DNA of 32,000 bases, taken from the NCBI RefSeq assembly GCF_003258315.1, contig NZ_CP030032.1, forward strand, positions 2,177,804 through 2,209,803, written 5' to 3'. Positions 11,259-25,125 of this stretch are shown here, piece after piece (the first letter of the stretch is position 1; every line of letters begins with the position of its first letter). Origin of the DNA: Bradymonas sediminis. GTDB lineage: Bacteria; Myxococcota_A; Bradymonadia; Bradymonadales; Bradymonadaceae. The position numbers were made by a program, and so were the translations under genes. The notes beneath the pieces are model-generated. The model had not been told where the DNA came from and did no database searches. It saw only the letters and a program-made list of their open reading frames with translations.

Positions 11259-12212
11259 TCAGCGGGTCTTATCACAGATCTCACCGCCACGAATGACCAG
11301 GTGATGGGCGGCCAGGGTTGCGTGGAGCGTGTTTTCCATGAGCGTCGCCACGGTCATCGGGCCGACGCCGCCGGGCACCGGCGTAATAAGTGAGGCGCGC
11401 TCGCGCGCGACCTCGAACTCAACATCGCCCTGCAGCGAGCCGTCGGCCATGCGGCTGATGCCGACGTCGATGACCACCGCCCCGGGTTTAACCCAGGCGC
11501 CCTTGATGAGCTCGGCCACGCCCGTGGCGACGACCAGGATATCGGCGCGCTGCACGATATCGGCGAGGTTCTCGGTAAAGCGGTGACAGACCGTGACGGT
11601 CGCGTTGGCGCGCACGAGCATCTGGGCCATCGGGCGCCCCACGATCATAGAGCGCCCCACGACCACCGCCTGTTTGCCGGCGCAGTCCACGCCGCTTGCC
11701 GCGAGCAGCGTCATGATGCCTCGCGGCGTGCAGGGCTCCAGGTTAGCCTGGCCGCTCATCAGCCGGCCAAGATTATTCGGGTGAAACCCATCGACATCTT
11801 TGTGCGGGGCGACCGTCATAATCGCCTCTTCGGAATCGTGATGCGCCGACAGCGGCAATTGCAACAGAACCCCATTCACCGCCGGGTCCGCGTTGACGCG
11901 GCGCAGCTCGGCCAGGAGCTCCTGCTGGGAGATATCGGCCGGCAGATGCAGGTGCGAGCTCTCAATGCCGACCTTTTTGCACGCGCGAATCTTATGGCGC
12001 ACGTAGATCTCGCTGGCCGGGTCATCTCCCACGCGCACCACACAGAGATGCGCACGAACCTCGCGCTCGGCGAGCAATTGGGTCGCGTCTTTGATCTGGG
12101 CGAGCAAGGCGTTCGCAATCTTTTTGCCATCGAGCAACTTCGGCGCGGCGCTCGAGGCGGCCTGGCGAAGCGGCGTGATAGCGGCTTTAAAATGGGGTTC
12201 AAAAGCGCTCAT
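11259..12212 (-). CDS. folD: bifunctional methylenetetrahydrofolate dehydrogenase/cyclohydrolase
   Basis: …LDGKKIA…VRVGDDPASEIYVRHK…VVVGRSMIVGRPMA…ITPVPGGVGPMT… The 317-aa model has about 25 extra N-terminal residues compared with typical FolD. An internal TTG (KLLDGK) could be the true start. Confidence 0.9.
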   Translation of the reverse strand: MSAFEPHFKAAITPLRQAASSAAPKLLDGKKIANALLAQIKDATQLLAEREVRAHLCVVRVGDDPASEIYVRHKIRACKKVGIESSHLHLPADISQQELLAELRRVNADPAVNGVLLQLPLSAHHDSEEAIMTVAPHKDVDGFHPNNLGRLMSGQANLEPCTPRGIMTLLAASGVDCAGKQAVVVGRSMIVGRPMAQMLVRANATVTVCHRFTENLADIVQRADILVVATGVAELIKGAWVKPGAVVIDVGISRMADGSLQGDVEFEVARERASLITPVPGGVGPMTVATLMENTLHATLAAHHLVIRGGEICDKTR

Positions 12213-12421
12213 AAAAACTCATTTCCTGGTTCGTGAAACAGCCGGAAATCGGCCGCGTCGAGCGCACTATAGCAGCGCATTCGGCGGTGTCTACCGGGTC
12301 TTCGTGGAGGCAAACCAGCCAGCGGTGGGGTTCATTCGATTTTTGATTAGTTGGGCGGTTTTGTTCCGTCTCGCGCGGGCATTATATGTTGTTAGCGTCA
12401 CACTAACCCCGAAACTGAGCT

Positions 12422-12596
12422 TGATTCAGTTTTCCGGACACATCGAAGATGTATAATCACAGAAACTCAACGAGGTGTTCAAATGAAACGGCATCCAAAA
12501 GAATTCAAGCACGAGGCGGTTCGCCTGCCCTATCTCGACGACCGCAGTGACGTTGCTCTCAGCTCCGATTCACGGACTCGCCACAACGTGTTTTAA
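12422..12596 (+). mobile_element. IS3-family left-end remnant (terminal IR plus first ~37 codons of orfA)
   Basis: TG-initiated end TGATTCAGTTTTCCGGACAC (12422-12441). 61 nt later an ATG (12483) opens MKRHPKEFKHEAVRL…, matching the IS3 OrfA N-terminal signature (EFK-EAV-L). The match degenerates to a stop at 12594-12596. The region is visibly lower in GC. Confidence 0.5.
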
Positions 12597-12682
12597 AGCC
12601 CCCTGCATATAGCATATTATTTGGGCAGCGCCCGGATATCACAACGATTTACGCACACCTCCGGTGCGAGCATATCAACAGT

Positions 12683-13663
12683 TCATTCCTCCAATAAACC
12701 ATCAAGATACACCGCCAACCTTTGGTCCAAAACCAGGACCTCCTGCTCCAACCAAACGCCGTCACTCGCAAGCCGCTGGACCCACTCAGGCGCGTCGCCA
12801 AGATCGAGGTCGGCGGGCCACCCTTTCATTTGGCCACGGTGCGCGACCTGCTCCTGCCAAAACGGCGGGAGAGCCCAGATAAGATCGGGACGCAGGCTTC
12901 GCAGATGCTTCATAATACCAAAACCATCGTGATCGAGGTCGCCGAAATGAACCACCGGCGTGGTCGAAAGAAGCTCCAGAAGATACCGCGCCGTCGCCGT
13001 ATTCCAACCCGGAACAAACGCAACCATCCACCCGGGCGGCACCTGAATATCGACAAAAGTGCCCAGATTTTCGACGGTCAACAACGCCTTCGGCAGCACA
13101 CCCCGAAGCTGCGTTCCATCGAGCAAAGCCCGCTCCGTCAGGACTAACTCTCCCAGGCATTCGGCAAGCGCGTTGGCATCCAATTCGGCGGTGTTTCGGA
13201 TCACGCTCAAACCAGCATTTGGGCGGATTCGAACCAGCCCATCCCGCGTCACTTCGACCTCGTCAATGGCCTCCCGCTGCTCCTCACTAAGCGTTGCCTT
13301 GGAATGAACACCGAGCACCGCGTTCGCCGTACGTTGGTTGAGACGCCGATGCCTCATTTCCGGCAAGGCTTCGACGCGCCGCTTTTCGCCCAGACTTCGA
13401 TAGCCATGCAGGTCCACCTTCAAGCCCCGGCGGCGCAGCTCCGCCTCAACCTCGCGCCATGTGGGGAAGACACGATCGAGCATCGTTTCAAGCGCCGGTC
13501 GGGATGCCTCATCGAGCGCCAATTCACGGTGCCGCGCGCTCCGGCGCGACCACGGTAGTTCGGCGAGTTCCTCCCAGGCGGCCGCCTGAGATTTGCGACG
13601 TTTTAGGGTGCCCGACGCCCAAAATTCGAGCAGGGCGAGCTGGTGGGCCTCATTACTCCACAT
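12683..13663 (-). CDS. jetD: Wadjet JetD / MksG-like Toprim (topo VI-like, DUF2220-type) nuclease subunit
   Basis: 326 aa. Toprim-like acidic set E198 (LLTVENLGTF) and D242-x-D244 (VVHFGDLDHDGFGI), C-terminal WLEQE. The ATG overlaps the jetC stop (TGATG, 13661-13665). Confidence 0.85.
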   Translation of the reverse strand: MWSNEAHQLALLEFWASGTLKRRKSQAAAWEELAELPWSRRSARHRELALDEASRPALETMLDRVFPTWREVEAELRRRGLKVDLHGYRSLGEKRRVEALPEMRHRRLNQRTANAVLGVHSKATLSEEQREAIDEVEVTRDGLVRIRPNAGLSVIRNTAELDANALAECLGELVLTERALLDGTQLRGVLPKALLTVENLGTFVDIQVPPGWMVAFVPGWNTATARYLLELLSTTPVVHFGDLDHDGFGIMKHLRSLRPDLIWALPPFWQEQVAHRGQMKGWPADLDLGDAPEWVQRLASDGVWLEQEVLVLDQRLAVYLDGLLEE

Positions 13664-16600
13664 CAGGCGTCGCTCCCTATCGCGCGCCGGCCGGTCACCC
13701 GGACCACCTCGCGCGCATCTTCGTCGACCTGGCGAATAAGCCGATACGTCGTGTTTCCCTGCGCCTGCGCAATCTCAGGTGCCGCGATTAGCAACTGAAG
13801 CTCCAGGTTTTCGCAGAGCTCGAAGAGCACGCCCAAATTATCCTGTGAGAGCCGATTCGCCTCGTCGAGAAAGAGAAAACGCAGCGTCCCACTGGAGCGC
13901 TTTGCGCGCAGCAAATTCGCGCTGCGCTCCCACGCGGTCAGGACCACCATCATGATCGCCGCGCCGACCCCAATCGCCTCACCGGTCGACATCTGAGACG
14001 GCTTCGCCCGCTCCCAATCATGCCCCGCCTGGCGCATCACCTCGATCCGCAATTCCAGATATTCACGATAATCCAATAAGCGCTGCCCCCCCGTTTTCCC
14101 GCCACCAAAACGCGTCGCGATATTCGCCATCGCATCCTCAAAGGACATCTCGGTTTGGAAGAGAAATTTCTGCGCCTCCTCACTGCGCAGCGCCTCCAAG
14201 ACACGCTCCTGGCGCTCGACGCGGTCCACCCGAATTCGCAACCCGTGGATGCTCCCAAATCGAATCTCGCGCAGCTCCTTATTTAACTGCGTCACTTGCC
14301 GATTCGCTTTACGCCGCTGCGTCTCGATATTGCGCGCAACATCCGCAGATTTCCCGCGCAGACTTCTCTCCTGACCGTCCAACTTCGCGCTGAGCTGCTC
14401 CAAATGAATCCGCAGACGCTTAAGCGAGGCGAGCGGGTCATCGCCCTCGGCGATCTGCAAGGGCACACGTCGCCGAAGCCAATCGCGCGCGCCCAGCCAG
14501 GCCCGCAAATAGGCCAACCCCGACTCACCTTTGGTGCCGTCGAGCGCGTCGCGAACTTTCTGCGCTCTTTCAATCCCACCCTCGGATTGCCCGAGACGCT
14601 CTATAAGTAATTTCGCGCTACTTAGAGCCTCCGAAAACAGATTCACCGACCCTTTGTTCTGAGTTTGCTCCAGATAGGCCGGAGTCATCACGCTGCAGAG
14701 AATTCCGGCTTCTTCAGCCTCTTGCTGCAGCCGCTCCCAGCGCGCTGCCTGCGGACGCCACTGAGCTTCTGACTCACTGAGTTCGTTGCGCGCATCCTCA
14801 ACCTTAACTGCCACCGCCTGGTGTCTCACCCGCGCCGCGACGACCGCATCGCCAAGCTCCCGCTCCTGTCTATCGAGCCGCTCAGACTCCGCTCTCCAAC
14901 TCTTATTGGTCTGCTCAGCGCGCACCACCGCTGCATCACTGGCGTCCTCAACACCGGTGGTCGCAAACTCCTCTTTATCCCGCTGAAGTGTGGCGTTTAG
15001 AGCCTTTAATTCCGCGTCCACCAGACGCATGCGCTCACTCGCCGACTCATAATCGACCTCGGCCGCGTCCTGCTCTTTTTGCGCCGCATCACGCGCCTCT
15101 TCGGCCAGCTTCAATTGCGCATTGAGCACCGGGTGAAGCGCCTGCTTTTTTTCCAACGCAGCCGGCGCATCGGACCACTTCAGCGCATGCGAATTCTCGA
15201 CCACTTCACTCAGCGCATCGCGCAAACGCCTCTGCGTATCGCGCTCCTCACACACCTTCACAGCTTGGGCGCGACGCGTCGAAAGCTGCGCCTCGGACAG
15301 AGGAATCTCTCGCAAAATATCAAGCCCCTCTTCCACAATCTGACGCGGCTCAGCCACCGTTTTCACCCGTATTTTTGCCGCGCGCGCGTCGTCTAAACGC
15401 CGCTCAAGCGCACGCGCATGCTCGGCCTGATCGGGCAAATCGAGGAGGTTTGCACTCGGCAAAAGCCCCTGCAGCCCACCGCGTCGTGCCCTGATCTTCT
15501 CAATTTGGGCGCTGAGCCTTTCAAGCTCAAGCGCGTGGCGATGGGCGGTGTTTTTTGCCGCGGCGAACCTCCCCTGAGCCGCGTGCAACTCCGGCGCTGG
15601 GTCCGCGCGCTCAAGAAGCCCGACTTCGGCGAGCAGCACCGTAACACTTGTAAGCGCATCCTCAACGCGGCGCTCATCCGCCACGGCCCGCGCCAACTCT
15701 CCCTCCGCATCGACAACCTCGAGCCCCAATTCCTCGATGAGCTTGGTCCGCGCCCTGCGCCCCAGCGTCGGCTGAGCCGGCACAGTCGTCATGCGATATC
15801 CGCTATAAGCCTCCACGAATACCGCGTCCTCAAAACCCGCACCCTCATCACTCTGCGAGCGCCTCTCCAACTCCTCCGCCAGCCGCGTGCTCTCCTCGAT
15901 AAGCCAGACCGTCTCCGGGCGTCGCGGCTCTTCGGCCAACTTCTTCGCAGCTCGCCAGATATCGTCGACGACAATCGCCTCGGCGAGGGGGCCCAGAAGC
16001 GCCTGCACCCGGCCAGCATCCTCGACCGAAATATTATCAAAATGCCCCGCGAGCAGTTCGCCCTCGGCCGCATCACGCGCCCTCAAAACCTCCGGGCGAA
16101 ACTCACCGCCACCGCCTTCAAGCTGCTCAATTCGCTTCAACAACGCATCAAGTCGAGCGCGCGCTTTTTTGTGGCGCTCGCGAAACGCATCGCGCCTGTC
16201 TCCCAAAAACCTATGCAACGCCTCCACATCGGCGCGACTCTCTAGCGGTCTCTCGGGTTGCCATGCCTTTGCAAGCCTCGCCGCAACTTCGCGCAGCGCG
16301 CGCCAACGCGGAAGCAACGCCTGAAGCGCCTCAATCGAACCCTCCAACTCCCGCACCTCACGCTCGGCCTCATCACTCGCCGCGTGCTCACTCGCCTGAG
16401 CGCCCCGGGCAACTTCCAGCTGCGCATCAGCGCCATCAAAGGCCGCGCGCACATCTTCTTGAGAGCGAAGCTCCGCGTTCGGCTCACTCCAGCGCGCCGC
16501 TTTTTGCCACGCATCTTTTTGCTTCGCCACAAGCACCCGCGCCTTCTCAAGCTGCGCGCTAAACTCTGCCACCTGCGCGCCTAAGCTCTCCAACTCTCGC

Positions 16601-18111
16601 AACGCGCTCAACTCCTGGCGCGCCCTGGCGAGCGCCTGTTGGGCCGAAATAGGCGCGCCGCAAAGCTCAGTGAGCGCCGCCAACACACCCTCATGCTCGC
16701 GGCGACGCTGGTCGGCGGTCTCGAGCTGGCGCTCAAGCACCACGATCCTGCGGTCAAGCTCGCCAACACGCGCCTCACACGCCTGGCGAAAACCCGGCGC
16801 CGTCTCGGCACGCACATCTTCGCCGGGCAACCCACGACGCGCCAATTCAAGCTGCTTAGAAATATGCCTAAAAGCCGAGGCCCGATATCGAAGCCCGTCG
16901 ATTCCCTTCTGAAAATCAGCGAGCCCAAGCGTCGCCGATTTAACGTCTTTCTGAGCATCTTTGTGACGATCTCGCGCAAATGCTCGCGCATCTAAAGCCT
17001 TTTGCTCAGCCTGTTGCGCTTGCTCAAAACGCTCGGCCGCAGCCACTCGTTGCGCCTCGCATTTCGCGATCCGACCCGCAATTTGATGCGCCCCCCGCAC
17101 CGATTCAAGCACTCGCCAGGAATCCTCACTCGCCGCTTTAGCAACCTCTAATTCAGCCACTACTTCCGCACGCTCAAGTTCCTTTTTTTTGAGCTCCGCC
17201 GCCAAATCACGCCCCTTATCTTCAACCCGCTTAAGCTCCTCGCCAGCCCGAATAACCTGCCGATGCAACTCATCCGAGCGCACGCGCGTCGCGTGAATCG
17301 CCGCGCCAAACATTTCCTGCCCCGCCTCAAAGACACCGGTGATCTCGGCCTCCATACGCCGCGAACTCTCGACCTCCATACGCGTGCGCCGACAGGCATC
17401 CAGATTCGCGTGGATGCGCTTTAAGGTGTCCGCCAGACCGGTTTCCTCGCTAAAAAGAAACTCGCGCAGCCTCTTCGTAAGCGCCTGCGAAATCCCCCCG
17501 ACCATGCTCGTGTGCAGCATCTGATTGAATTTGCTGCGCTCCTCACGCTCCGAGAGGCGAAGCGGCGCGACACCGCGCTCAAAGAGTTCGCTAAAATAAT
17601 CGGCTGTCTTCGAATAGCTCTTGAGCTGCGCGCCGCTCAGCGCGGCGAGTTCTTTGAGCCGATTCAACTCCGGAACCGCGTCCAACTCACCGTCCCTTCG
17701 CCCGCGATCAAGCAATAGATCCTGCAGCGAGACATCGTCGGCCAACCCACTAATTATGAAGGGCGTCAGGTTGAGATTTGGCTCCGCTTTCCGCTCCAAA
17801 TGAACCCCCGCAAGTAGCCGCTCACCGCTCCCAAGCCGAAAGTCCAACGCCGCATAAGACGGGCTGTTCGCCTCGCCTAGACGCCCATAAATCCCTTTAT
17901 CGCCCCCGGTCGCCTCCGACACCCCAACATTGCTAAAACGCAAAAACGACAGGTCCGGCAGGAGCACCACATAAGCCGCGATCATCACGGTCGTCTTACC
18001 CGCCCCGTTGGTCCCCTCCAGCGCCGTAACATGTTCGTCGAGCAAATAGCGCTGATAAAAGACGCCCTTCCAATTCACCAGAGCCAACTGTGTTGCGCGA
18101 GTGCGTTTCAC
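13663..18111 (-). CDS. jetC: Wadjet JetC / MksB, MukB-like SMC-family ATPase
   Basis: 1482 aa. Walker A GTNGAGKTT (aa 33-41), a very long A/E/R/L/Q-rich coiled coil, C-terminal Walker B LRFLFLDEA and a MukB-like tail LFELCENLELQLLIAAPE…TTYRLIRQV. GTG start overlaps the jetB stop (GTGA). Confidence 0.9.
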   Translation of the reverse strand: MKRTRATQLALVNWKGVFYQRYLLDEHVTALEGTNGAGKTTVMIAAYVVLLPDLSFLRFSNVGVSEATGGDKGIYGRLGEANSPSYAALDFRLGSGERLLAGVHLERKAEPNLNLTPFIISGLADDVSLQDLLLDRGRRDGELDAVPELNRLKELAALSGAQLKSYSKTADYFSELFERGVAPLRLSEREERSKFNQMLHTSMVGGISQALTKRLREFLFSEETGLADTLKRIHANLDACRRTRMEVESSRRMEAEITGVFEAGQEMFGAAIHATRVRSDELHRQVIRAGEELKRVEDKGRDLAAELKKKELERAEVVAELEVAKAASEDSWRVLESVRGAHQIAGRIAKCEAQRVAAAERFEQAQQAEQKALDARAFARDRHKDAQKDVKSATLGLADFQKGIDGLRYRASAFRHISKQLELARRGLPGEDVRAETAPGFRQACEARVGELDRRIVVLERQLETADQRRREHEGVLAALTELCGAPISAQQALARARQELSALRELESLGAQVAEFSAQLEKARVLVAKQKDAWQKAARWSEPNAELRSQEDVRAAFDGADAQLEVARGAQASEHAASDEAEREVRELEGSIEALQALLPRWRALREVAARLAKAWQPERPLESRADVEALHRFLGDRRDAFRERHKKARARLDALLKRIEQLEGGGGEFRPEVLRARDAAEGELLAGHFDNISVEDAGRVQALLGPLAEAIVVDDIWRAAKKLAEEPRRPETVWLIEESTRLAEELERRSQSDEGAGFEDAVFVEAYSGYRMTTVPAQPTLGRRARTKLIEELGLEVVDAEGELARAVADERRVEDALTSVTVLLAEVGLLERADPAPELHAAQGRFAAAKNTAHRHALELERLSAQIEKIRARRGGLQGLLPSANLLDLPDQAEHARALERRLDDARAAKIRVKTVAEPRQIVEEGLDILREIPLSEAQLSTRRAQAVKVCEERDTQRRLRDALSEVVENSHALKWSDAPAALEKKQALHPVLNAQLKLAEEARDAAQKEQDAAEVDYESASERMRLVDAELKALNATLQRDKEEFATTGVEDASDAAVVRAEQTNKSWRAESERLDRQERELGDAVVAARVRHQAVAVKVEDARNELSESEAQWRPQAARWERLQQEAEEAGILCSVMTPAYLEQTQNKGSVNLFSEALSSAKLLIERLGQSEGGIERAQKVRDALDGTKGESGLAYLRAWLGARDWLRRRVPLQIAEGDDPLASLKRLRIHLEQLSAKLDGQERSLRGKSADVARNIETQRRKANRQVTQLNKELREIRFGSIHGLRIRVDRVERQERVLEALRSEEAQKFLFQTEMSFEDAMANIATRFGGGKTGGQRLLDYREYLELRIEVMRQAGHDWERAKPSQMSTGEAIGVGAAIMMVVLTAWERSANLLRAKRSSGTLRFLFLDEANRLSQDNLGVLFELCENLELQLLIAAPEIAQAQGNTTYRLIRQVDEDAREVVRVTGRRAIGSDA

Positions 18112-18794
18112 GACTCGACCTCCATTTCCAGGTCATCGGCTTCTTCCTCATCGGCATCAACGTCCTTATCTTCGACAACGACCTCACCGCATTCAATCAA
18201 CGCGATAAGCGCCGCCTCCGGGTCGGAGAGCCCACGCACCGGCTCTGCGAAACGCATCAAGGGCGCACGTAACGCGATTTCCATATCCGAAAGACGCTCG
18301 ACAAAACCAAGGCGGTCCAAACCCCTAAGTGCTTTCTGGATCTCCCCGCGCACCTCCCTCTCGGCGACCCGCTCGTCGTGCACCTGACCTCGGCGCGAAT
18401 TCAACGCCTTGAGCAAGCGCTCCTTTCCGACGATATTCGTGAGCAACTCCGTCAGTTGTCCGACCTCAACGAGCCCCACCGACTCCGCCGTCGCCGGGTC
18501 CAAACGCATCAACGCGAGCGCTTGCCCGACGAGCATCTCCGCCGTCGATAGGTGACGCCGACCGAGGCGCGCGCCCGAGGGCAAAAGATAAAAATATGCA
18601 TCGCCGCCTTGCACCAACTCGCAATCAAAGCGGCGATAAAACGTCTCCAAATGATATTGCGCGTCGACCAAAAAGCCGAACCAATCGATATCCTCGCGCC
18701 CAATATGGCGACCGCGCCGCAGTTCAAGGTCGACGTCCGGAAAATGCTCATCCAACACAACATCTTCCAGCGAATTATAAGCCTCACTCCTCAT
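18108..18794 (-). CDS. jetB: Wadjet JetB / MksE, MukE-like subunit
   Basis: 228 aa. …RRGRHIGREDIDWFGFLVDAQYHLETFYRRFDCELV…YFYLLP… resembles MukE, with an acidic C-terminal tail. ATGA overlap with the jetA stop. Confidence 0.85.
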   Translation of the reverse strand: MRSEAYNSLEDVVLDEHFPDVDLELRRGRHIGREDIDWFGFLVDAQYHLETFYRRFDCELVQGGDAYFYLLPSGARLGRRHLSTAEMLVGQALALMRLDPATAESVGLVEVGQLTELLTNIVGKERLLKALNSRRGQVHDERVAEREVRGEIQKALRGLDRLGFVERLSDMEIALRAPLMRFAEPVRGLSDPEAALIALIECGEVVVEDKDVDADEEEADDLEMEVES

Positions 18795-20116
18795 GACTCC
18801 CCTCCAAAATCAGAACGCCACGCCCACTCCTCGATTTCCATCGGCGCGGACTCCAAACGGCACCACTCGCGCTCATGGGGCGCGCGCACCTGAACCCGCT
18901 CCGCGACAAGCGCCGCAATCCGCCCGGCAAAACGATAGCGCTGGGTCGCCGGCATCTCGTGGAGCACCCGTTGCGTCACCTCCACCAACGACTCACACCC
19001 ACTGGCCAACGCCTCATCGACGCGCTCCTCAAGCCGCATCGGAAGAAGGTCCTCCGAGACCAACACTACCGCGCGCTCCCGATCCGCCGTTGGCCGGGTA
19101 ACCGGCGCCCGCTCAACCCGCGAGCGCGCCTCCCGAAACAGCCGAATCGAGGGTTCATCGGCCACCACAAACGCAAAACGCCGCTCAAGCTCAAGCCACC
19201 CGGCGAGTTGGTCGCGCAGGCGTTGGCTGACCGCGCGGTCGGGGTCCAGGCGAACGACTCCGCGCAAAAACCGCTGGATATATTGATAATAATCCGACCA
19301 GGCCCGCTGCCGCTCCCCGCCCCACGCCGCCACCCGTTCCAGGTGCTCCTGAACCCGCTGCGCTTGCTCAACCGCCGCCTCGACCTCCGCATCCATTGCC
19401 AACTGTTCAATATCCTGCAATTGCTCATGCAACAGCGCGCTATCGCGCAACAAAATCTCATTGAGCTCGCTAAGCGTCTCGCTCGTTTTCTCCAGCAGAG
19501 CCTCACACTCTTCCACCGCCGCAAACCAATCCCTCAACAACAACGCGCTAATCTCCTCACGAACCTCCCGCTGCTGCGCATCCATCCCGCGCTGGCGCCG
19601 CTCAATCCCCGCGACCAAATCACCCACCGTCACCCTAAGCGGCTCCACCACATCCGCTCGCCACGCCTGCTCATCCTGCGCCTTGCGCGCATCCACCAAC
19701 ACCGTCCCAAGCTGCGAAATCAACGCCCGCATTAACACCACCAAACTCACTCGAGTCAGCGTCTCGTCTGCCACAAAAAAATCGACCACCGCGACCGCGA
19801 GCTGTGTCAGCGTAAACTCCCCATCGCGCACCACCCCCGCCCCGTCCACCCGCCGCAACAGCCGCTGGTCCCGAAGATGCTGAATCGCATGCGTCGCACG
19901 CTTACTCGGATTCGACGCATCCGGCTCGATGAGTTCACACACTTGCAGATACAAATCCGTTAACTGCTCCCCCGTCAAAGACGCAAAATTCCCATGCTCC
20001 GCCCGCACCCGCAACGCCACCAAATAGCAGAGATGCGCCGGCTCAATCACAAGCCCCACACTCGCCCGACTCAGCTTTCCGAGCACCAGATGAAGGTCCG
20101 TCTGCTCATGCACCAC
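18791..20116 (-). CDS. jetA: Wadjet JetA / MksF, MukF-like kleisin subunit
   Basis: 441 aa. The central block …ISALLLRDWFAAVEECEALLEKTSETLSELNEIL… resembles MukF. GGAGGAGG Shine-Dalgarno sequence directly upstream of tandem GTG codons (20116/20113). Confidence 0.85.
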   Translation of the reverse strand: MVHEQTDLHLVLGKLSRASVGLVIEPAHLCYLVALRVRAEHGNFASLTGEQLTDLYLQVCELIEPDASNPSKRATHAIQHLRDQRLLRRVDGAGVVRDGEFTLTQLAVAVVDFFVADETLTRVSLVVLMRALISQLGTVLVDARKAQDEQAWRADVVEPLRVTVGDLVAGIERRQRGMDAQQREVREEISALLLRDWFAAVEECEALLEKTSETLSELNEILLRDSALLHEQLQDIEQLAMDAEVEAAVEQAQRVQEHLERVAAWGGERQRAWSDYYQYIQRFLRGVVRLDPDRAVSQRLRDQLAGWLELERRFAFVVADEPSIRLFREARSRVERAPVTRPTADRERAVVLVSEDLLPMRLEERVDEALASGCESLVEVTQRVLHEMPATQRYRFAGRIAALVAERVQVRAPHEREWCRLESAPMEIEEWAWRSDFGGES

Positions 20117-20337
20117 CCACCTCCTCCTTCCCCCGGCCGATATATCCGCCCGAGGATTGGCATTATCTCTTCGTACTCAACGAAGTTAGCACGCGCCTCG
20201 GAAGCGCCTCAAGCAAGACCACGCGTTCGAGCACCTCATCGAGCCCAACACATCCGCCGGTTGACCTCACCCCAGCACGTTCCTATCTGTTTCCTCCGAA
20301 CGCACCACACCCACGCTCACCACCCAAGAAGGTCACC

Positions 20338-20698
20338 ATGGACCACGACACCTTCAAAATCGGCCCCGACATGCCCGTCCACCGCCTCGGCTTCGGCGCC
20401 ATGCGCATCACCGGCCCTGGCATCTAGGGCTGGCCCGCAGACCGAGACCGCGACAAAGCCCTCCAGCGACGCGCCGTCGAACTCGGCGTCAAGCTGATTG
20501 ACGCCGCCGAGCCTATAGCCCCGAAGTCAGCGAGTACCTGCTCTGCGACGCTCTCAAACCCTATAAAAATATCAACATCTCCACCAAGAACGGGCTCCTG
20601 CATGCAGGTGCCAACGACTGGTGCCCAAACGGCCCCACCCCAAACACCTCGAGATCGCCCTCAACGACTTGCTGCGACGCTTCGAGGTCGACCAAATC
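20338..20698 (+). pseudogene. aldo/keto reductase pseudogene (nonsense, at least 2 frameshifts, 3' truncation)
   Basis: MDHDTFKIGPDMPVHRLGFGAMRITGPGI then TAG (20425-20427) where AKRs have Trp. Homology continues in shifted frames (…RRAVELGVKLID…, …SPEVSEYLLCDALKPYKNINISTKNG…, …KHLEIALNDLLRRFEVDQI) and stops abruptly near 20698. Confidence 0.8.
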
Positions 20699-21150
20699 TC
20701 CCGAATCCGCTCGAGCAACTCGTCGAAATAGTCTTTGCCGAAGCGTTTGTTTAGCTTGAGACGCCCATCGTCCAGCAGAAAACCCTTGACGATAAACTCG
20801 CGCAAAGTGTTCGTGGCCCAGATGCGAAAATGGGTCGCCTGGGTGCTGTTGACGCGGTAGCCGACCGAGATAATCGCGTCGAGATTATAGTGTGAGATCT
20901 CGCGGGTCACCTCGCGGTTTCCCTCGGTTCAAAATATTCGAACATTTCGAATGGTTGCTTCTTCGATAAGTTCGCCGCTCTTATACACCTGTTTCAGGTG
21001 ATGATTAATTGTTTGCACTTCAACTCCAAAAAGCTCCGCCATCCTCCGCTGCGAAAGCCAAAAGCTCTCGTCTTCATGACGGACTTCGACCCGGACTTTG
21101 CCCTCGGGCGACTCATAGAAGATAAGTTCACTTTTATGGTGATCGGTCAT
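20695..21150 (-). pseudogene. RhuM-family protein pseudogene (in-frame TGA plus C-terminal truncation)
   Basis: Track ORFs 20929-21150 and 20572-20910 are one frame, interrupted only by TGA at 20929-20931: …EEATIRNVRIF*TEGNREVTREISHYNLDAIISVGYRVNSTQATHFRIWATNTLREFIVKGFLLDD…FGKDYFDELLERIREI. RhuM-like sequence ends at about 20695, where it abuts the AKR fragment. Confidence 0.85.
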
Positions 21151-21283
21151 TTTTTCGTGCCCTGTGAAAGTTGCTCAATCCAGACCTCAAAATGCCTGTC
21201 TAGAACTGGCCGATTTAACGGAACAGCTCAAGTTCGGTGAATTCCAACTCTATACAATAATCATGATAGCTCAAATAGTTGGC

Positions 21284-21751
21284 TCACTCCCCTCGCTCCT
21301 CTTTGGCACGCTGCTCTTCGCGATAGAATGCGCGCTCAGCAACGCCAACCTGCCACTCCCAAAACGGTAAAAAAACGTCCTCCTTCTCCTCTTTGAGTTG
21401 GTGCCGTGCTGATTCCATTGCCTCAATAATGACAACAGGAACCTCGCCAAGCGTACCGAACCAAGAACCCGTGCTACGATCTCTCAACGCATAATAAAAT
21501 GCGTCACACTCGTCCGATTCTGACTTCGAAGCCCACTCTAATGCTGGCCGTGCGATAGTTCGCCAAGCGGACGTGCCGATGGCAAAGCCGCTGCTTAGTC
21601 GAGCCAGTTGCAAAGCCGAATCCACCGATACTGCTTGACTGATCTGATATTTCAACTCGTTAGGTACTACTCGGCCGTGCGGATCAACATCCAGAAGAAA
21701 TCCCCCAAGAAAGTCGCGGCTATTACTGCCACTCGCGACGCAGTTCAGCAC
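21284..21751 (-). CDS. hypothetical protein (orphan, lower GC), possibly a fragment
   Basis: 155-aa ORF with no motif I recognise. Its first codons overlap the IS3 orfB remnant on the other strand. Confidence 0.35.
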   Translation of the reverse strand: MLNCVASGSNSRDFLGGFLLDVDPHGRVVPNELKYQISQAVSVDSALQLARLSSGFAIGTSAWRTIARPALEWASKSESDECDAFYYALRDRSTGSWFGTLGEVPVVIIEAMESARHQLKEEKEDVFLPFWEWQVGVAERAFYREEQRAKEERGE

Positions 21752-21900
21752 GCCATTTTGCGGTACTTAATGTGGTCCAATGCACATCACATTTACTCAT
21801 TCAATGACTATGTTTCTCCGATGCAGTTTGAGAGGTTCATATTGACGCGGGAAGCGGCAGCGTAAATGCTTCTATTTTAGTGTCCGAAAGACCGGGGGCA
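21731..21900 (+). mobile_element. IS3-family right-end remnant (C-terminal tail of orfB/integrase plus terminal IR)
   Basis: …TRDAVQHAILRYLMWSNAHHIYSFNDYVSPMQFERF… matches the conserved IS3 OrfB C-terminus pattern (TR…I..YI..YN..R.HS.LGY.SP..FE), stop at 21863-21865. The element ends …GTGTCCGAAAGACCGGGGGCA at 21900 (reverse complement TGCCCCCGGTCTTTCGGACAC), the TG…CA type terminus. Confidence 0.55.
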
Positions 21901-22861
21901 TGCCAGGTCGTCGAGACCGCGGGCGCCGCGCATTTTGTGAACTCTTATGGCGGCGACGCGCACCTGCTGCTCTATTCGAATCGCCGCGCCGACGCGGTCC
22001 TTTTGGACGCGCTCATCGCCACCGAGCCAAAGAGCGACCTCATCCCAAAAATCGTGAAGGGCTTGCAGACAAATCGCACCCGCGGGCGCTGGAATAATGC
22101 CCAGGAGAACGTCTTTATCCTGCTGGCGCTCGACCGCTATTTCGACACCTACGAGAAGCAGACGCCTAATTTTGTGGCCAATATCTGGCTCGGCGACGAC
22201 TTCGTCGGTGAACACGCATTTAAGGGCCGAAGCGCCGATTATCAAAACTCGAGCGTCCTGATGAAAGCGGTGGTCGACAAGACCGTGAAGGCCGCCGATA
22301 TCACCATTAAGAAAAACGGTGAGGGCCGCCTTTATTATCGCCTGGGCATGCGCTACGCGCTTAAATCACTCGCGCAGGAGGCCGCCGATTATGGCTTCGC
22401 GGTCGATCGAAAATACGAGGGCGTTGACAACCCGAAGGACGTCTTCCAGCGCGAAGACGGCACCTGGGAGGTCAAGCTCGGCAGCCGGGTACGTGTGCGC
22501 CTGACGATGGTCGCCCCGACGCGTCGCTATCATGTCGCCCTGGTCGATCCCCTGCCCGCCGGGCTCGAGCCGCTTAACCTCGCCCTGGCCACGACCGAAG
22601 CGGTGCCCGAAGATCCGCATGCGAGTACAGCGCCCACGCCCTATTGGTGGTGGTCGCGGCCCTGGTATTCGCACCAGAACCTTCGCGACGAGCGGGCCGA
22701 GGCGTTTAGCTCACTATTGGGCGCCGGCGTGCACGAGTTCACCTACACCACCCGGGCCACCACACCCGGTGAATTCGTGGTGCCGCCGACCAAGGCCGAG
22801 GAGATGTATAGCCCCGCAGACATTCGGACGAAGTGCGTCGACGAGGATGGTCGTGAAATAG
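21901..22861 (+). pseudogene. alpha-2-macroglobulin family protein, C-terminal ~320 codons only (5'-truncated at the IS end, +1 frameshift near the 3' end)
   Basis: …LLLYSNRRADAVLLDALIATEPKSDLIPKIVKGLQTNRTRGRWNNAQENVFILLALDRYF… and …GEFVVPPTKAEEMYSP are typical bacterial A2M C-terminal domains. The natural ending PQTFGRSASTRMVVK* (stop 22859-22861) lies in the +1 frame after a CCCC run at 22812-22815. Confidence 0.8.
22813..22857 (+). repeat. 45-bp direct repeat, left copy (A2M 3' end; att-like)
   Basis: CCCGCAGACATTCGGACGAAGTGCGTCGACGAGGATGGTCGTGAA is identical to 24035-24079. Confidence 0.95.
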
Positions 22862-22953
22862 GGAATGCCTGCCAACGGGGAGGCTAATTTTGCCTCTAAA
22901 GGGCAATCTAGCTTGACTCTAAGGCAGATGATTCTATAGTCCTAAGCAATATG

Positions 22954-22990
22954 ACCGACGCCTCTGCACATCTTTTGTGTACGCGTCGGT
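22954..22990 (-). terminator. possible terminator hairpin downstream of the Abi gene
   Basis: ACCGACGC (22954-22961) and GCGTCGGT (22983-22990) form an 8-bp stem with additional inner pairing, 20 nt after the abi stop. The U-tract is weak. Confidence 0.3.
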
Positions 22991-23010
22991 TCTCATTTGC
23001 CCACCTTATA

Positions 23011-23937
23011 TTACTGCCAGAGCGACCACGTTTCCCAGTTCTCAAAAGTACCCAGACCGTCTAAATCAAAGCGTTTTGGGAACTCCTCGTTTAGCAATCG
23101 CTGTAGCCGCTGACCCCACGAAGAGGTCGGACAGATGACTTTCAGCAATTGCTGCATAATACAGAAATAGAAAAATGGTCGCTCATGTCGCAGTGCTCTC
23201 GGCCAAGTTGGCGGGCTAGCTGAAAGTTCTGGAACATTGATATTCCATAGTCGACTGTGGTGAGCCGCCACGTTGCGTATAAAGTTCAAACTTCGCAGCC
23301 ATTGTGCAAAAGCCTGCCCATCCGGAGCGCCATAATTTTCAGCGATAATCTGTTTATCGTGATGCTGCATCCCGGCAAATAAGTGTGACAATAAGCCGAA
23401 ATCCCAAATTTCAATGGCGACCCAAATTGGGAGTGAACCGCCATATTCTTGGGCGTGATGCTCGATAAATGGTTGTTTTCGAGCGCGCTGGCGTGCCCTT
23501 TCATATTTAGACAACCATAACTCGTGTTTTGTTCGGCCGTTTCTCATTTTCTTTTTTGCGAAATTGCCATGCAGGTATTTGGGCAATTCATGCGCGCATG
23601 GGTCATATTTTCCAAGCAGATAGGCGACATCGACGCGCACAGCCATCTCGATACGTTCCAATGCATCAAGCGCCAAAAGTCGTAATTTTTTGTCGAAGAC
23701 ATATAAACGCGCCACATCCTCAAAACGGCTCCCCGGCATAAACTCATCTAGCCTCTGTCGGGCCTCAGAGTCTGATGCGTCGATGACGCGTAGTGGATAC
23801 CAATATCCACTTAAACGATAATAACCAATGCGCTGCAAATAATCCGTTGCAGCCGCCACATCCTCAACCAGCAAACCGCGTCCTTGCAATCGCTGCAATT
23901 GCTTTTCATATGAACGCCAAGGTTTGAGAGGTTTCAT
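23011..23937 (-). CDS. Abi_2 family (AbiD/AbiF-like) abortive-infection phage-resistance protein
   Basis: 308 aa. …YLQRIGYYRLSGYWYP…LYVFDKKLRLLALDALERIEMAVR…LPIWVAIEIWDFGLLSHLF…WLRSLNFIRNVAAHHSRLWN… is the characteristic Abi_2 motif series. Visibly lower GC than the flanks. Confidence 0.85.
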   Translation of the reverse strand: MKPLKPWRSYEKQLQRLQGRGLLVEDVAAATDYLQRIGYYRLSGYWYPLRVIDASDSEARQRLDEFMPGSRFEDVARLYVFDKKLRLLALDALERIEMAVRVDVAYLLGKYDPCAHELPKYLHGNFAKKKMRNGRTKHELWLSKYERARQRARKQPFIEHHAQEYGGSLPIWVAIEIWDFGLLSHLFAGMQHHDKQIIAENYGAPDGQAFAQWLRSLNFIRNVAAHHSRLWNINVPELSASPPTWPRALRHERPFFYFCIMQQLLKVICPTSSWGQRLQRLLNEEFPKRFDLDGLGTFENWETWSLWQ

Positions 23938-24034
23938 CGATTTTACTTGGTGAGGGTGTTGGCTCTAGCGAGTACAAATGATCCAGAACGAAAGACTAAA
24001 GCTTCCCGTCAAATTTGGCGAGCAATAGAAATAA

Positions 24035-24079
24035 CCCGCAGACATTCGGACGAAGTGCGTCGACGAGGATGGTCGTGAA
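24035..24079 (+). repeat. 45-bp direct repeat, right copy
   Basis: Identical to 22813-22857. It continues GTGA, so it also encodes …RMVVK* (AAG TGA here versus AAA TAG in the left copy). Confidence 0.95.
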
Positions 24080-24132
24080 GTGATAGATAGACCCGGTCTG
24101 TCATTGCAGTGATTCTATCGATTGAGCAGTTT

Positions 24133-25125
24133 ATGAAACGCGTACTTCTTTTGCACACCGGCGGTACCCTGGGCATGACCGGGCCGCCGCTTTTGCCCGA
24201 CGCCTACTCCGGCGTGCTCACCGAGGCCGTGCCCGAGCTGGAGAAGATCGCCCAGCTCGACACGCGCATCGTGCTAAACCTGGACTCCAGCGACCTGGGG
24301 CCGACGCATTGGACCCTTTTATGCGACGAAATCACGACGCATTATGATGATTATGACGGCTTCGTCATCGTCCATGGCACCGATACGATGGCGTATACCG
24401 CCGGCGCCCTGGCGTTCGCGCTCGTCGGCCTGGACAAACCTGTGATCCTGACCGGCGCGCAGCGCCCGCTGGCGTCGCTGCGCACCGACGCGCGGCGCAA
24501 TTTGGTCGACGCGGTGGAGATGGCAACGCGCGACGTCCCGGAGGTCGCGATTTGTTTTGACGGCCTGCTGCTGCGCGGTTGTTGCAGCACCAAGAGCAAC
24601 GCGCGCGACTACCGCGCGTTTGACAGCCCGGGCATCCCGGCGCTGGCCAAATTGGGCGTGGATATCGACCTCGGCGAGCATATTCGGCGTCCGCGGGTGC
24701 CGTTTGCGCCGGACGCGCGATTTGAGGAGCAAGTCCTGGCCATCAATATGACGCCGGGCTTTCAACCCCAGATGCTCGAGATGCTCCTGGGCATGCCCCA
24801 GCCTCCCCACGGCGTGATTATCGCCGGCTTTGGCTCCGGGACTGTGCCGCGCGAAAAGGGCTCGCTTGCGCCGGCGGTCAAACGCGCGACTGAGATGGGC
24901 ATCGAGGTGCTGGTCATCACCCAATGCTACGGCACCGTCGACCTGGATCTCTACCAAAACAGCCGCCAACTTGCCGAAGCCGGCGCAATCTCCGGCGGTC
25001 GAATGACGCTGGAGGCCGCCGTGCCGAAGTTAATGCACGCCCTCGCCCTCTACCCCGATCCGCACGCCCAACGCGAAGAGCGTTGCGCGTATTTGCAGCG
25101 AAATATTGCGGGTGAATTGGACTAA
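24133..25125 (+). CDS. ansA: L-asparaginase, type I
   Basis: MKRVLLLHTGGTLGM… (TGGT catalytic motif), …VIVHGTDTMAYTA…. ATG at 24133 is preferred over the track's GTG at 24109. Confidence 0.88.
   Translation: MKRVLLLHTGGTLGMTGPPLLPDAYSGVLTEAVPELEKIAQLDTRIVLNLDSSDLGPTHWTLLCDEITTHYDDYDGFVIVHGTDTMAYTAGALAFALVGLDKPVILTGAQRPLASLRTDARRNLVDAVEMATRDVPEVAICFDGLLLRGCCSTKSNARDYRAFDSPGIPALAKLGVDIDLGEHIRRPRVPFAPDARFEEQVLAINMTPGFQPQMLEMLLGMPQPPHGVIIAGFGSGTVPREKGSLAPAVKRATEMGIEVLVITQCYGTVDLDLYQNSRQLAEAGAISGGRMTLEAAVPKLMHALALYPDPHAQREERCAYLQRNIAGELD

Follow-up and report, generated by a model that had tools for sequence, protein, structure and literature searches.

The stretch considered here is a window of 32,000 nt from the 5.05-Mb single-contig genome of Bradymonas sediminis (G000, C1:2177804-2209803). 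Positions given below refer to this window, unless they are preceded by G000. In the interval between folD and ansA, the window contains remnants of insertion sequences (ISs) of the IS3 family, which bracket a 9.5-kb block of other genes. Upstream of this bracket are pyk, pgi, gcvT-H-PA and then folD (11259-12212, minus strand), as assigned by Pfam. Downstream are a C-terminal fragment of an alpha-2-macroglobulin (A2M) gene (21906-22887), an Abi_2/AbiD gene (23011-23937, minus strand), ansA (24109-25125) and, beyond it, a complete A2M gene. Within the bracket, from left to right, are genes for a JetD_C-domain protein and for proteins of the MukB, MukE and MukF types, a fragment of an aldo/keto reductase (AKR) gene, a fragment of a RhuM-family gene and an orphan open reading frame (ORF). 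An initial annotation of the window had read the bracket as the two opposite ends of one IS3-family element, with the intervening genes in the place of the transposase. The sequences it quoted are present where it placed them, and BLAST searches and alignments bear out that both pieces are IS3-family remnants on the plus strand with their termini outward. Their assignment to a single element does not survive comparison with the intact elements of the same genome.

Two IS3-family remnants and the genes they adjoin

The remnants are referred to here as stubs of ISX and ISY, which are working names for two IS3-family elements of G000. The stubs and the features that meet them are as follows.

12416-12553, plus strand: 5' remnant of ISX, with the left inverted repeat (IRL) at 12416-12441 and orfA from its ATG at 12483 through codon 21
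12554-12682, no strand: unassigned spacer of 129 bp, from the ISX breakpoint to the end (stop codon) of the jetD-like gene
21287-21727, minus strand: 5'-truncated orphan gene, the upstream end of which meets the ISY breakpoint
21728-21905, plus strand: 3' remnant of ISY, with the last 45 orfB codons at 21728-21862, the stop codon at 21863-21865 and the right inverted repeat (IRR) at 21880-21905
21906-22887, plus strand: 3' fragment of a third A2M paralog, about 320 codons, with a bMG10 domain (Pfam)

The full-length elements provide the reference for both stubs. A copy of ISX at G000 2988787-2990028 is 1242 bp in length and is flanked by a 3-bp CAA target duplication, and a copy of ISY at G000 4016608-4017898 is 1291 bp in length; neither full copy of ISY shows a target duplication. 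In both full-length elements orfB stands in the -1 frame relative to orfA. Pfam recognizes HTH_Tnp_1, HTH_21 and rve domains in them, and they score 400 and 360 bits on the NCBIfam model NF033516 'IS3 family transposase' (cut-off 160). A profile search of the genome returned exactly four IS3 loci, one of which has in-frame stops. Together with these stops, pairwise differences of 16-21% among the four full-length copies suggest that the IS3 population of the genome is old and mostly inactive.

In BLAST searches against the whole genome, the left stub is 92% identical to G000 2988787-2988914 and 4788554-4788683, both within full-length copies. Alignment to full-length copies places its terminus at 12416 (TGAGCTTGATTCAG...), 6 nt to the left of the 12422 first proposed. 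The TG start falls at 12416, and the IRL of the stub agrees with that of ISX at 24 of 26 positions. An orfA-like start had been described at 12483-12596. The ATG at 12483 and 21 orfA codons stand, with support from tblastn with ISX OrfA, but ISX homology fades at about 12546-12553 and the remainder of this 37-codon ORF, up to 12596, is non-IS sequence. The spacer that follows has no other match in the genome. These alignments show that ISX formerly sat upstream of the folD promoter and that no more than its first ~138 bp are left in place.

The right stub is 90% identical to G000 4016608-4016785 and 80% identical to G000 1151010-1151187 in the same searches. Its homology to full-length copies begins at 21728 and runs to a terminus at 21905 (...GGGGGCATGCCA), 5 nt to the right of the earlier 21900, past which the flanks of the three aligned ISY sequences diverge. 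Here the CA end falls at 21905, the IRR agrees with that of ISY at 23 of 26 positions, and the orfB tail is supported by tblastn with ISY OrfB residues 282-326. The TG at 12422 and the CA at 21900 are thus internal dinucleotides, and intact copies give termini other than these two positions, an outcome that the initial annotation had itself named as refuting its reading.

Beyond the right terminus, A2M homology begins at 21903-21906, directly at the end of ISY. The fragment shares 72-74% amino acid and 76-77% DNA identity with the C-terminal ~306 residues of two full paralogs, arranged in tandem a few kb further downstream, and the missing 5' part of about 5.3 kb is absent from the whole genome, in keeping with the initial description of a right end that adjoins a 5'-truncated A2M gene. 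ISY accordingly sat inside this third A2M paralog, its last 178 bp remaining joined to the A2M 3' part at the original insertion junction. The full paralogs lie in tandem near ansA, at G000 2205456-2211704 and 2212398-2218532, with the fragment as the third; in the relatives G001 and G005, ansA is followed directly by a single A2M gene.

On its inner side, the right stub meets the orphan gene. The sole detectable homologue of this gene, P0002 (264 aa), shares 44% identity in a pairwise alignment of query residues 4-160 with subject residues 107-264, and about 106 N-terminal residues of the orphan gene are missing at the ISY junction. Since a 5'-truncated gene here meets a 5'-truncated IS, the right inner junction is read as a deletion joint.

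ISX and ISY are only distantly similar to each other, at 50% amino acid identity in OrfB and 40% in OrfA. At the DNA level they have one common patch of 70 bp inside orfB, and their ends are not alignable. The nearest relatives of both stubs are the copies of G000 itself, at 90-92% identity versus at most 81% elsewhere among 42 other genomes of the family, and the stubs therefore derive from the resident IS lineages. When the intact copies and their inverted repeats were compared, as the initial annotation had proposed, the two stubs matched different full-length copies. The outer termini of the two stubs agree with each other at 15 of 26 positions, which falls among the cross-element pairs (11-18/26) and below the cognate IRL/IRR pairs (19-20/26). 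TG at positions 1-2 and CGGACAC at positions 20-26 recur in every one of the eight IS3 termini compared, and together they supply 9 of the 15 matches between the stub ends. The apparent pairing of the ends in the initial annotation is thus explained by a block common to all eight termini; the block is real, but it is no evidence of cognate ends. Alignment accordingly assigns the stubs to two different IS3-family elements.

The distribution of the end types agrees with this assignment. Both copies of ISX carry ISX-type right ends and both copies of ISY carry ISY-type left ends. ISX-like left ends occur in 6 of the 42 other genomes of the family, one of which has five copies and no ISY-like end, and ISY-like right ends occur in none of the 42. 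No element with both end types was found in the genomes searched, and the ISX IRL pattern had no exact match in a search of 185,579 species genomes.

These comparisons bear directly on the reading in which cargo took the place of the transposase body of a single IS3 element and so produced a derivative that could be mobilized in trans. Mobile insertion cassettes (MIC231-type; MICs) and transporter ISs (tISs) consist of a cognate IRL/IRR pair from one IS with a target duplication. The bracket resembles these in having passenger genes and no transposase between IS-type ends, in the outward TG...CA termini in the same orientation, and in the common sub-terminal CGGACAC. It differs from them in that the ends are non-cognate, with the 15/26 agreement of a cross-element pair, and no duplication flanks it. 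MIC-type derivatives, as well as those of the miniature inverted-repeat transposable element (MITE) type, require a cognate transposase (PMC3129680). Both forms in which the initial annotation had offered this reading, an IS with a replaced interior and a non-autonomous, passenger-carrying IS derivative, need cognate ends and fail on that point. Full copies of ISX and ISY each carry ends of their own type, the two end types are differently distributed across genomes, and the block exists as a single copy. Taken together, this origin is scarcely credible.

Further IS scraps are scattered through the genome. Solo 3' ends of ISX occur at G000 4381018-4381149 (132 bp) and 1301953-1302014 (62 bp), and a scrap of ISY at G000 3936738-3936771 (34 bp). 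The first of these was considered as the missing half of the ISX in the window and was rejected, since its identity to ISX is only 80.6% and its surroundings show no relation to the locus. Separately, a sequence of ~42 nt just upstream of an ISX copy (G000 2988700-2988741) recurs at G000 1438267-1438308, 4014174-4014214 and 2985481-2985525 with 91-100% identity, and one of these recurrences sits 2.4 kb from an ISY copy.

The Muk and JetD-like operon and the surrounding fragments

The remaining features of the locus, from left to right, are these.

12213-12415, no strand: intergenic left flank, upstream of folD (named by Pfam); ISX homology begins only at 12416
12293-12266, minus strand: promoter-like site for folD from a promoter scan, within the 203 bp between folD and 12416
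12683-13663, minus strand: JetD-like Toprim protein, 326 aa; Pfam JetD_C 37.6 bits (cut-off 22), profile positions 40-108 only
13663-18111, minus strand: MukB-type ATPase of the structural maintenance of chromosomes (SMC) group, 1482 aa; Pfam MukB N-terminal 239 bits, MukB hinge 101 bits
18108-18794, minus strand: MukE/MksE-type subunit, 228 aa; Pfam MukE 117 bits, MksE 108 bits
18791-20116, minus strand: MukF-type kleisin, 441 aa; Pfam MukF_M and KicB
20330-20698, plus strand: AKR pseudogene, a 5' fragment with an in-frame stop, 3'-truncated, traced in stop-to-stop ORFs
20575-21174, minus strand: RhuM-family pseudogene, N-terminal part only, with an in-frame TGA at 20929-20931; Pfam Virulence_RhuM 124 bits, profile positions 12-96 of 252; PADLOC PDC-S05
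22813-24079, no strand: Abi_2/AbiD cassette between 45-bp direct repeats, with its gene at 23011-23937 (minus strand); Pfam Abi_2, PADLOC AbiD 204 bits

The sole intact unit inside the bracket is the MukF-MukE-MukB-JetD-like operon. The MukB-type protein exceeds the cut-off of the NCBIfam MukB equivalog (888.9 against 699 bits), and the kleisin stays under that of the NCBIfam MukF model (300.6 against 407 bits). The JetD-like gene is full length, since its product aligns over residues 1-325 with a 329-aa orthologue in the relative G016 (47% identity), and it is therefore uncut by the ISX stub. In G016, the same four-gene order recurs at 43-50% identity, with ~2 kb extra between mukE and mukB. 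A search of the 185,579 species genomes returned no relatives of the JetD-like protein. A MukF homologue is found in 2 of 40 relatives, and G000 also encodes a canonical SMC, so that the Muk module is considered accessory. The initial annotation had labelled the cargo a Wadjet (jetABCD) operon, a type of system in which a Toprim nuclease of the JetD/MksG type accompanies a trio of SMC, kleisin and KITE subunits; the trio here scores as genuine MukF, MukE and MukB. Among the PADLOC models, those for JetA and JetB have no match to the proteins of the module, and those for JetD1 and JetC give weak, partial matches; because of this, standard defence finders probably miss the combination of MukFEB with a JetD-like protein.

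To the right of the operon, AKR and RhuM fragments are present between the stubs, as the initial annotation had it, and both are truncated and joined tail to tail. The AKR fragment is 72.7% identical in DNA to a paralog at G000 1304347-1304707, which itself matches Pfam Aldo_ket_red at 177.8 bits; the AKR pieces of the window alone are too short for Pfam. The fragment was considered as a recent intragenomic copy, and this was rejected at 72.7% identity to the paralog at 1.304 Mb.

Beyond the bracket, perfect 45-bp direct repeats at 22813-22857 and 24035-24079 flank the Abi_2 cassette. Their sequence is similar to the 3' end of the A2M paralogs, and 24031-24078 matches the end of paralog 2 at 85%. 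The cassette belongs to the same island yet lies outside the IS bracket.

The composition of the island is a mosaic of three GC classes. Core genes have 61-65% GC and the Muk module 58-64%, with a strongly negative GC skew, whereas the RhuM and orphan genes have 49-51% and the Abi_2 cassette 47-49%. The island borders have no tRNA gene nearby, and none of the ORFs examined was recognized as an integrase gene. The window also contains two tandem tRNA-Ala(GGC) genes, at 408-481 and 519-592, with a spacing of 37 nt.

Tests for movement of the block as a unit

Transposition of the bracket as a unit would be expected to leave traces at its borders or elsewhere. The absence of a target-site duplication, which the initial annotation had noted, holds at the corrected termini too, where the flanks read ...GAAAC and GGTCG... 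(AAC versus GGT). No second copy of the 9.5-kb block exists in the genome, and no other copy or related locus was found in the other genomes searched. Between the two inner junctions, there are no direct or inverted repeats of at least 9 nt, and a search for repeats across the region found only those of the Abi_2 cassette.

No empty or polymorphic site was found, as the other records with the JetD-like protein (GCA_004362595.1 and Logan contigs) are identical and represent the same or a near-identical strain. Conserved gene order with the nearest relatives, G001 and G005 (FolD about 70% identical), stops at folD on one side and at ansA on the other. The two blocks, that of folD and that of ansA and A2M, are unlinked there, being 1.3 Mb apart in G001, of the same genus, and on different contigs in G005. 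The folD-ansA interval is therefore a synteny breakpoint and a variable spot, and relatives as distant as these do not allow an empty site to be reconstructed. A DtxR/TPR block that lies beside folD in G001, and ~557 kb away in G000, was considered as a marker of an IS-linked breakpoint and was rejected as too divergent. Many Logan contigs, from several Sequence Read Archive (SRA) runs, end at 12458 and one begins at 21774, both inside the IS stubs. The ends at 12458 fit non-biological breaks of the assembly graph, at a 37-nt stretch identical to the ISX copies.

A composite transposon is bounded by a pair of copies of a single IS, of which one or both are functional. As in Tn5, Tn9 and Tn10, the cargo here lies between IS-derived ends with their termini outward. 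The differences are that these ends come from two IS species (50% identity in OrfB), measure 138 and 178 bp and encode no transposase, and that there is no target duplication, one copy only, and one end in a gene without its other half. The initial annotation had also raised the possibility of two direct copies of one IS with inward deletions, that is, a former composite transposon. Two ISs were indeed present, and the inner part of each was lost. They are, however, different ISs, and with no target duplication, a single copy and a mosaic interior, nothing points to a former composite transposon.

A variant adapted to two elements would have full copies of ISX and ISY flank the cargo, move it as a unit by cross-recognition and then decay inward. 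The IRL-left, IRR-right outward geometry is correct for such a hybrid compound transposon, TG and CGGACAC occupy identical positions in the eight termini, and both IS lineages are resident. Nevertheless, the two transposases are 50% identical, neither a target duplication nor another copy in the genomes searched is found, and the interior is a patchwork of truncated genes with three different base compositions. Moreover, the right end sits inside an A2M gene, the 5' part of which is missing from the left flank; the folD promoter region is found there, so that an extra deletion would be needed. This history is accordingly regarded as very unlikely.

A different possibility is that a single recombination event, illegitimate or otherwise, exchanged everything from ISX nt ~138 to ISY nt ~1113 for a foreign segment that was already a mosaic. 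Such a one-step replacement would account for inner junctions that are both clean and repeat-free, and it suits a Muk module that is patchy among relatives at a locus that is a synteny breakpoint. Against it, the nearest relative of the AKR fragment in the interior is a resident paralog, the three GC classes fit stepwise assembly better, and no donor sequence was found. It is considered unlikely, although less so than any form of unit transposition discussed here.

A probable history of independent insertions and deletions in a decaying defence island

The favoured explanation, to which a probability of roughly 80% is assigned, is that two resident IS3 elements inserted independently and were later trimmed by deletions, within a defence island between folD and ansA that was assembled horizontally and is decaying. 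ISX inserted upstream of folD and ISY inside an A2M paralog, and each would then have been cut back from inside by ordinary illegitimate deletion. A single deletion from the 5' part of the orphan gene into ISY could have removed the ~5.3 kb A2M 5' part together with about 1.1 kb of ISY. Another may have removed the 3' ~1.1 kb of ISX, up to 129 bp behind the jetD-like gene, and the tail-to-tail joint of the AKR and RhuM fragments would be a third deletion scar. From their alignments, ISX, ISY, the orphan gene, AKR, RhuM and A2M are all truncated. The initial annotation had considered an IS-mediated rearrangement or deletion likely; deletion has shaped the locus, as the truncated genes and ISs attest, and an IS may or may not have mediated it.

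The constituents of this explanation are each familiar. Partial IS copies are regarded as scars that ancestral recombination has left behind, and are a standard annotation category of ISfinder/ISsaga (PMC3129680). Like other solo-end IS3 copies, the stubs keep a TG or CA terminus, an inverted repeat of ~26 nt and the first orfA or last orfB codons, and they differ in nothing essential; here, two stubs of two elements happen to lie 9.3 kb apart. The locus is similar to defence islands in its combination of MukFEB with a JetD-like protein, AbiD/Abi_2, a RhuM fragment (PDC-S05), IS scars and mixed GC, at a synteny breakpoint and with a cargo that is patchy among relatives. It differs from them in that no border integrase or tRNA was found and the Abi_2 cassette has 45-bp repeats of its own. 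The feature is thus of a known kind, namely ordinary IS scars and deletion joints in a defence island.

Several observations weigh against two independent insertions. Among the available records there is no close strain in which the site is empty or in an intermediate state, and the order of the events in the scheme above, like their number, is inferred. The termini face outward in an IRL...IRR arrangement, as they would in a compound element, a geometry expected by chance in half of the cases with outward-facing ends. Given the roughly five solo scraps that the 5-Mb genome contains, chance would bring two of them to within 9.5 kb of each other in only ~4% of cases (a rough estimate), and the co-location therefore needs an argument from a hot spot or from tolerated insertions. 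It is best explained by insertions that were tolerated and retained in non-essential island DNA. Finally, the full ISY copies are also without a target duplication, and for this reason a missing duplication is weak evidence in this lineage.

Two independent insertions with later trimming leave a block that is not expected to move, because the stubs encode no transposase and their ends are non-cognate. It is conceivable, if highly improbable, that one ISX or ISY transposase might recognize both stubs through their common TG...CGGACAC architecture. If this were true, the bracket would be a hybrid-ended non-autonomous element, and the 9.5-kb block could take a defence operon of the MukBEF type, linked to a nuclease, from one replicon to another.

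The 9.5-kb block is not an IS derivative, and the IS stubs happen to mark its edges. This does away with the reading of an IS3 element that had come to transport a condensin-like defence system within 9.5 kb of cargo. The locus also illustrates two points on the annotation of this family. The ends of ISs are best set by alignment to full-length copies, as internal TG and CA dinucleotides misled by 5-6 nt here, and a conserved sub-terminal block of the inverted repeat can make the ends of different IS3 elements look paired. The corrected junctions provide exact landmarks for work on the MukFEB and JetD-like operon or on the A2M paralog family of this organism.

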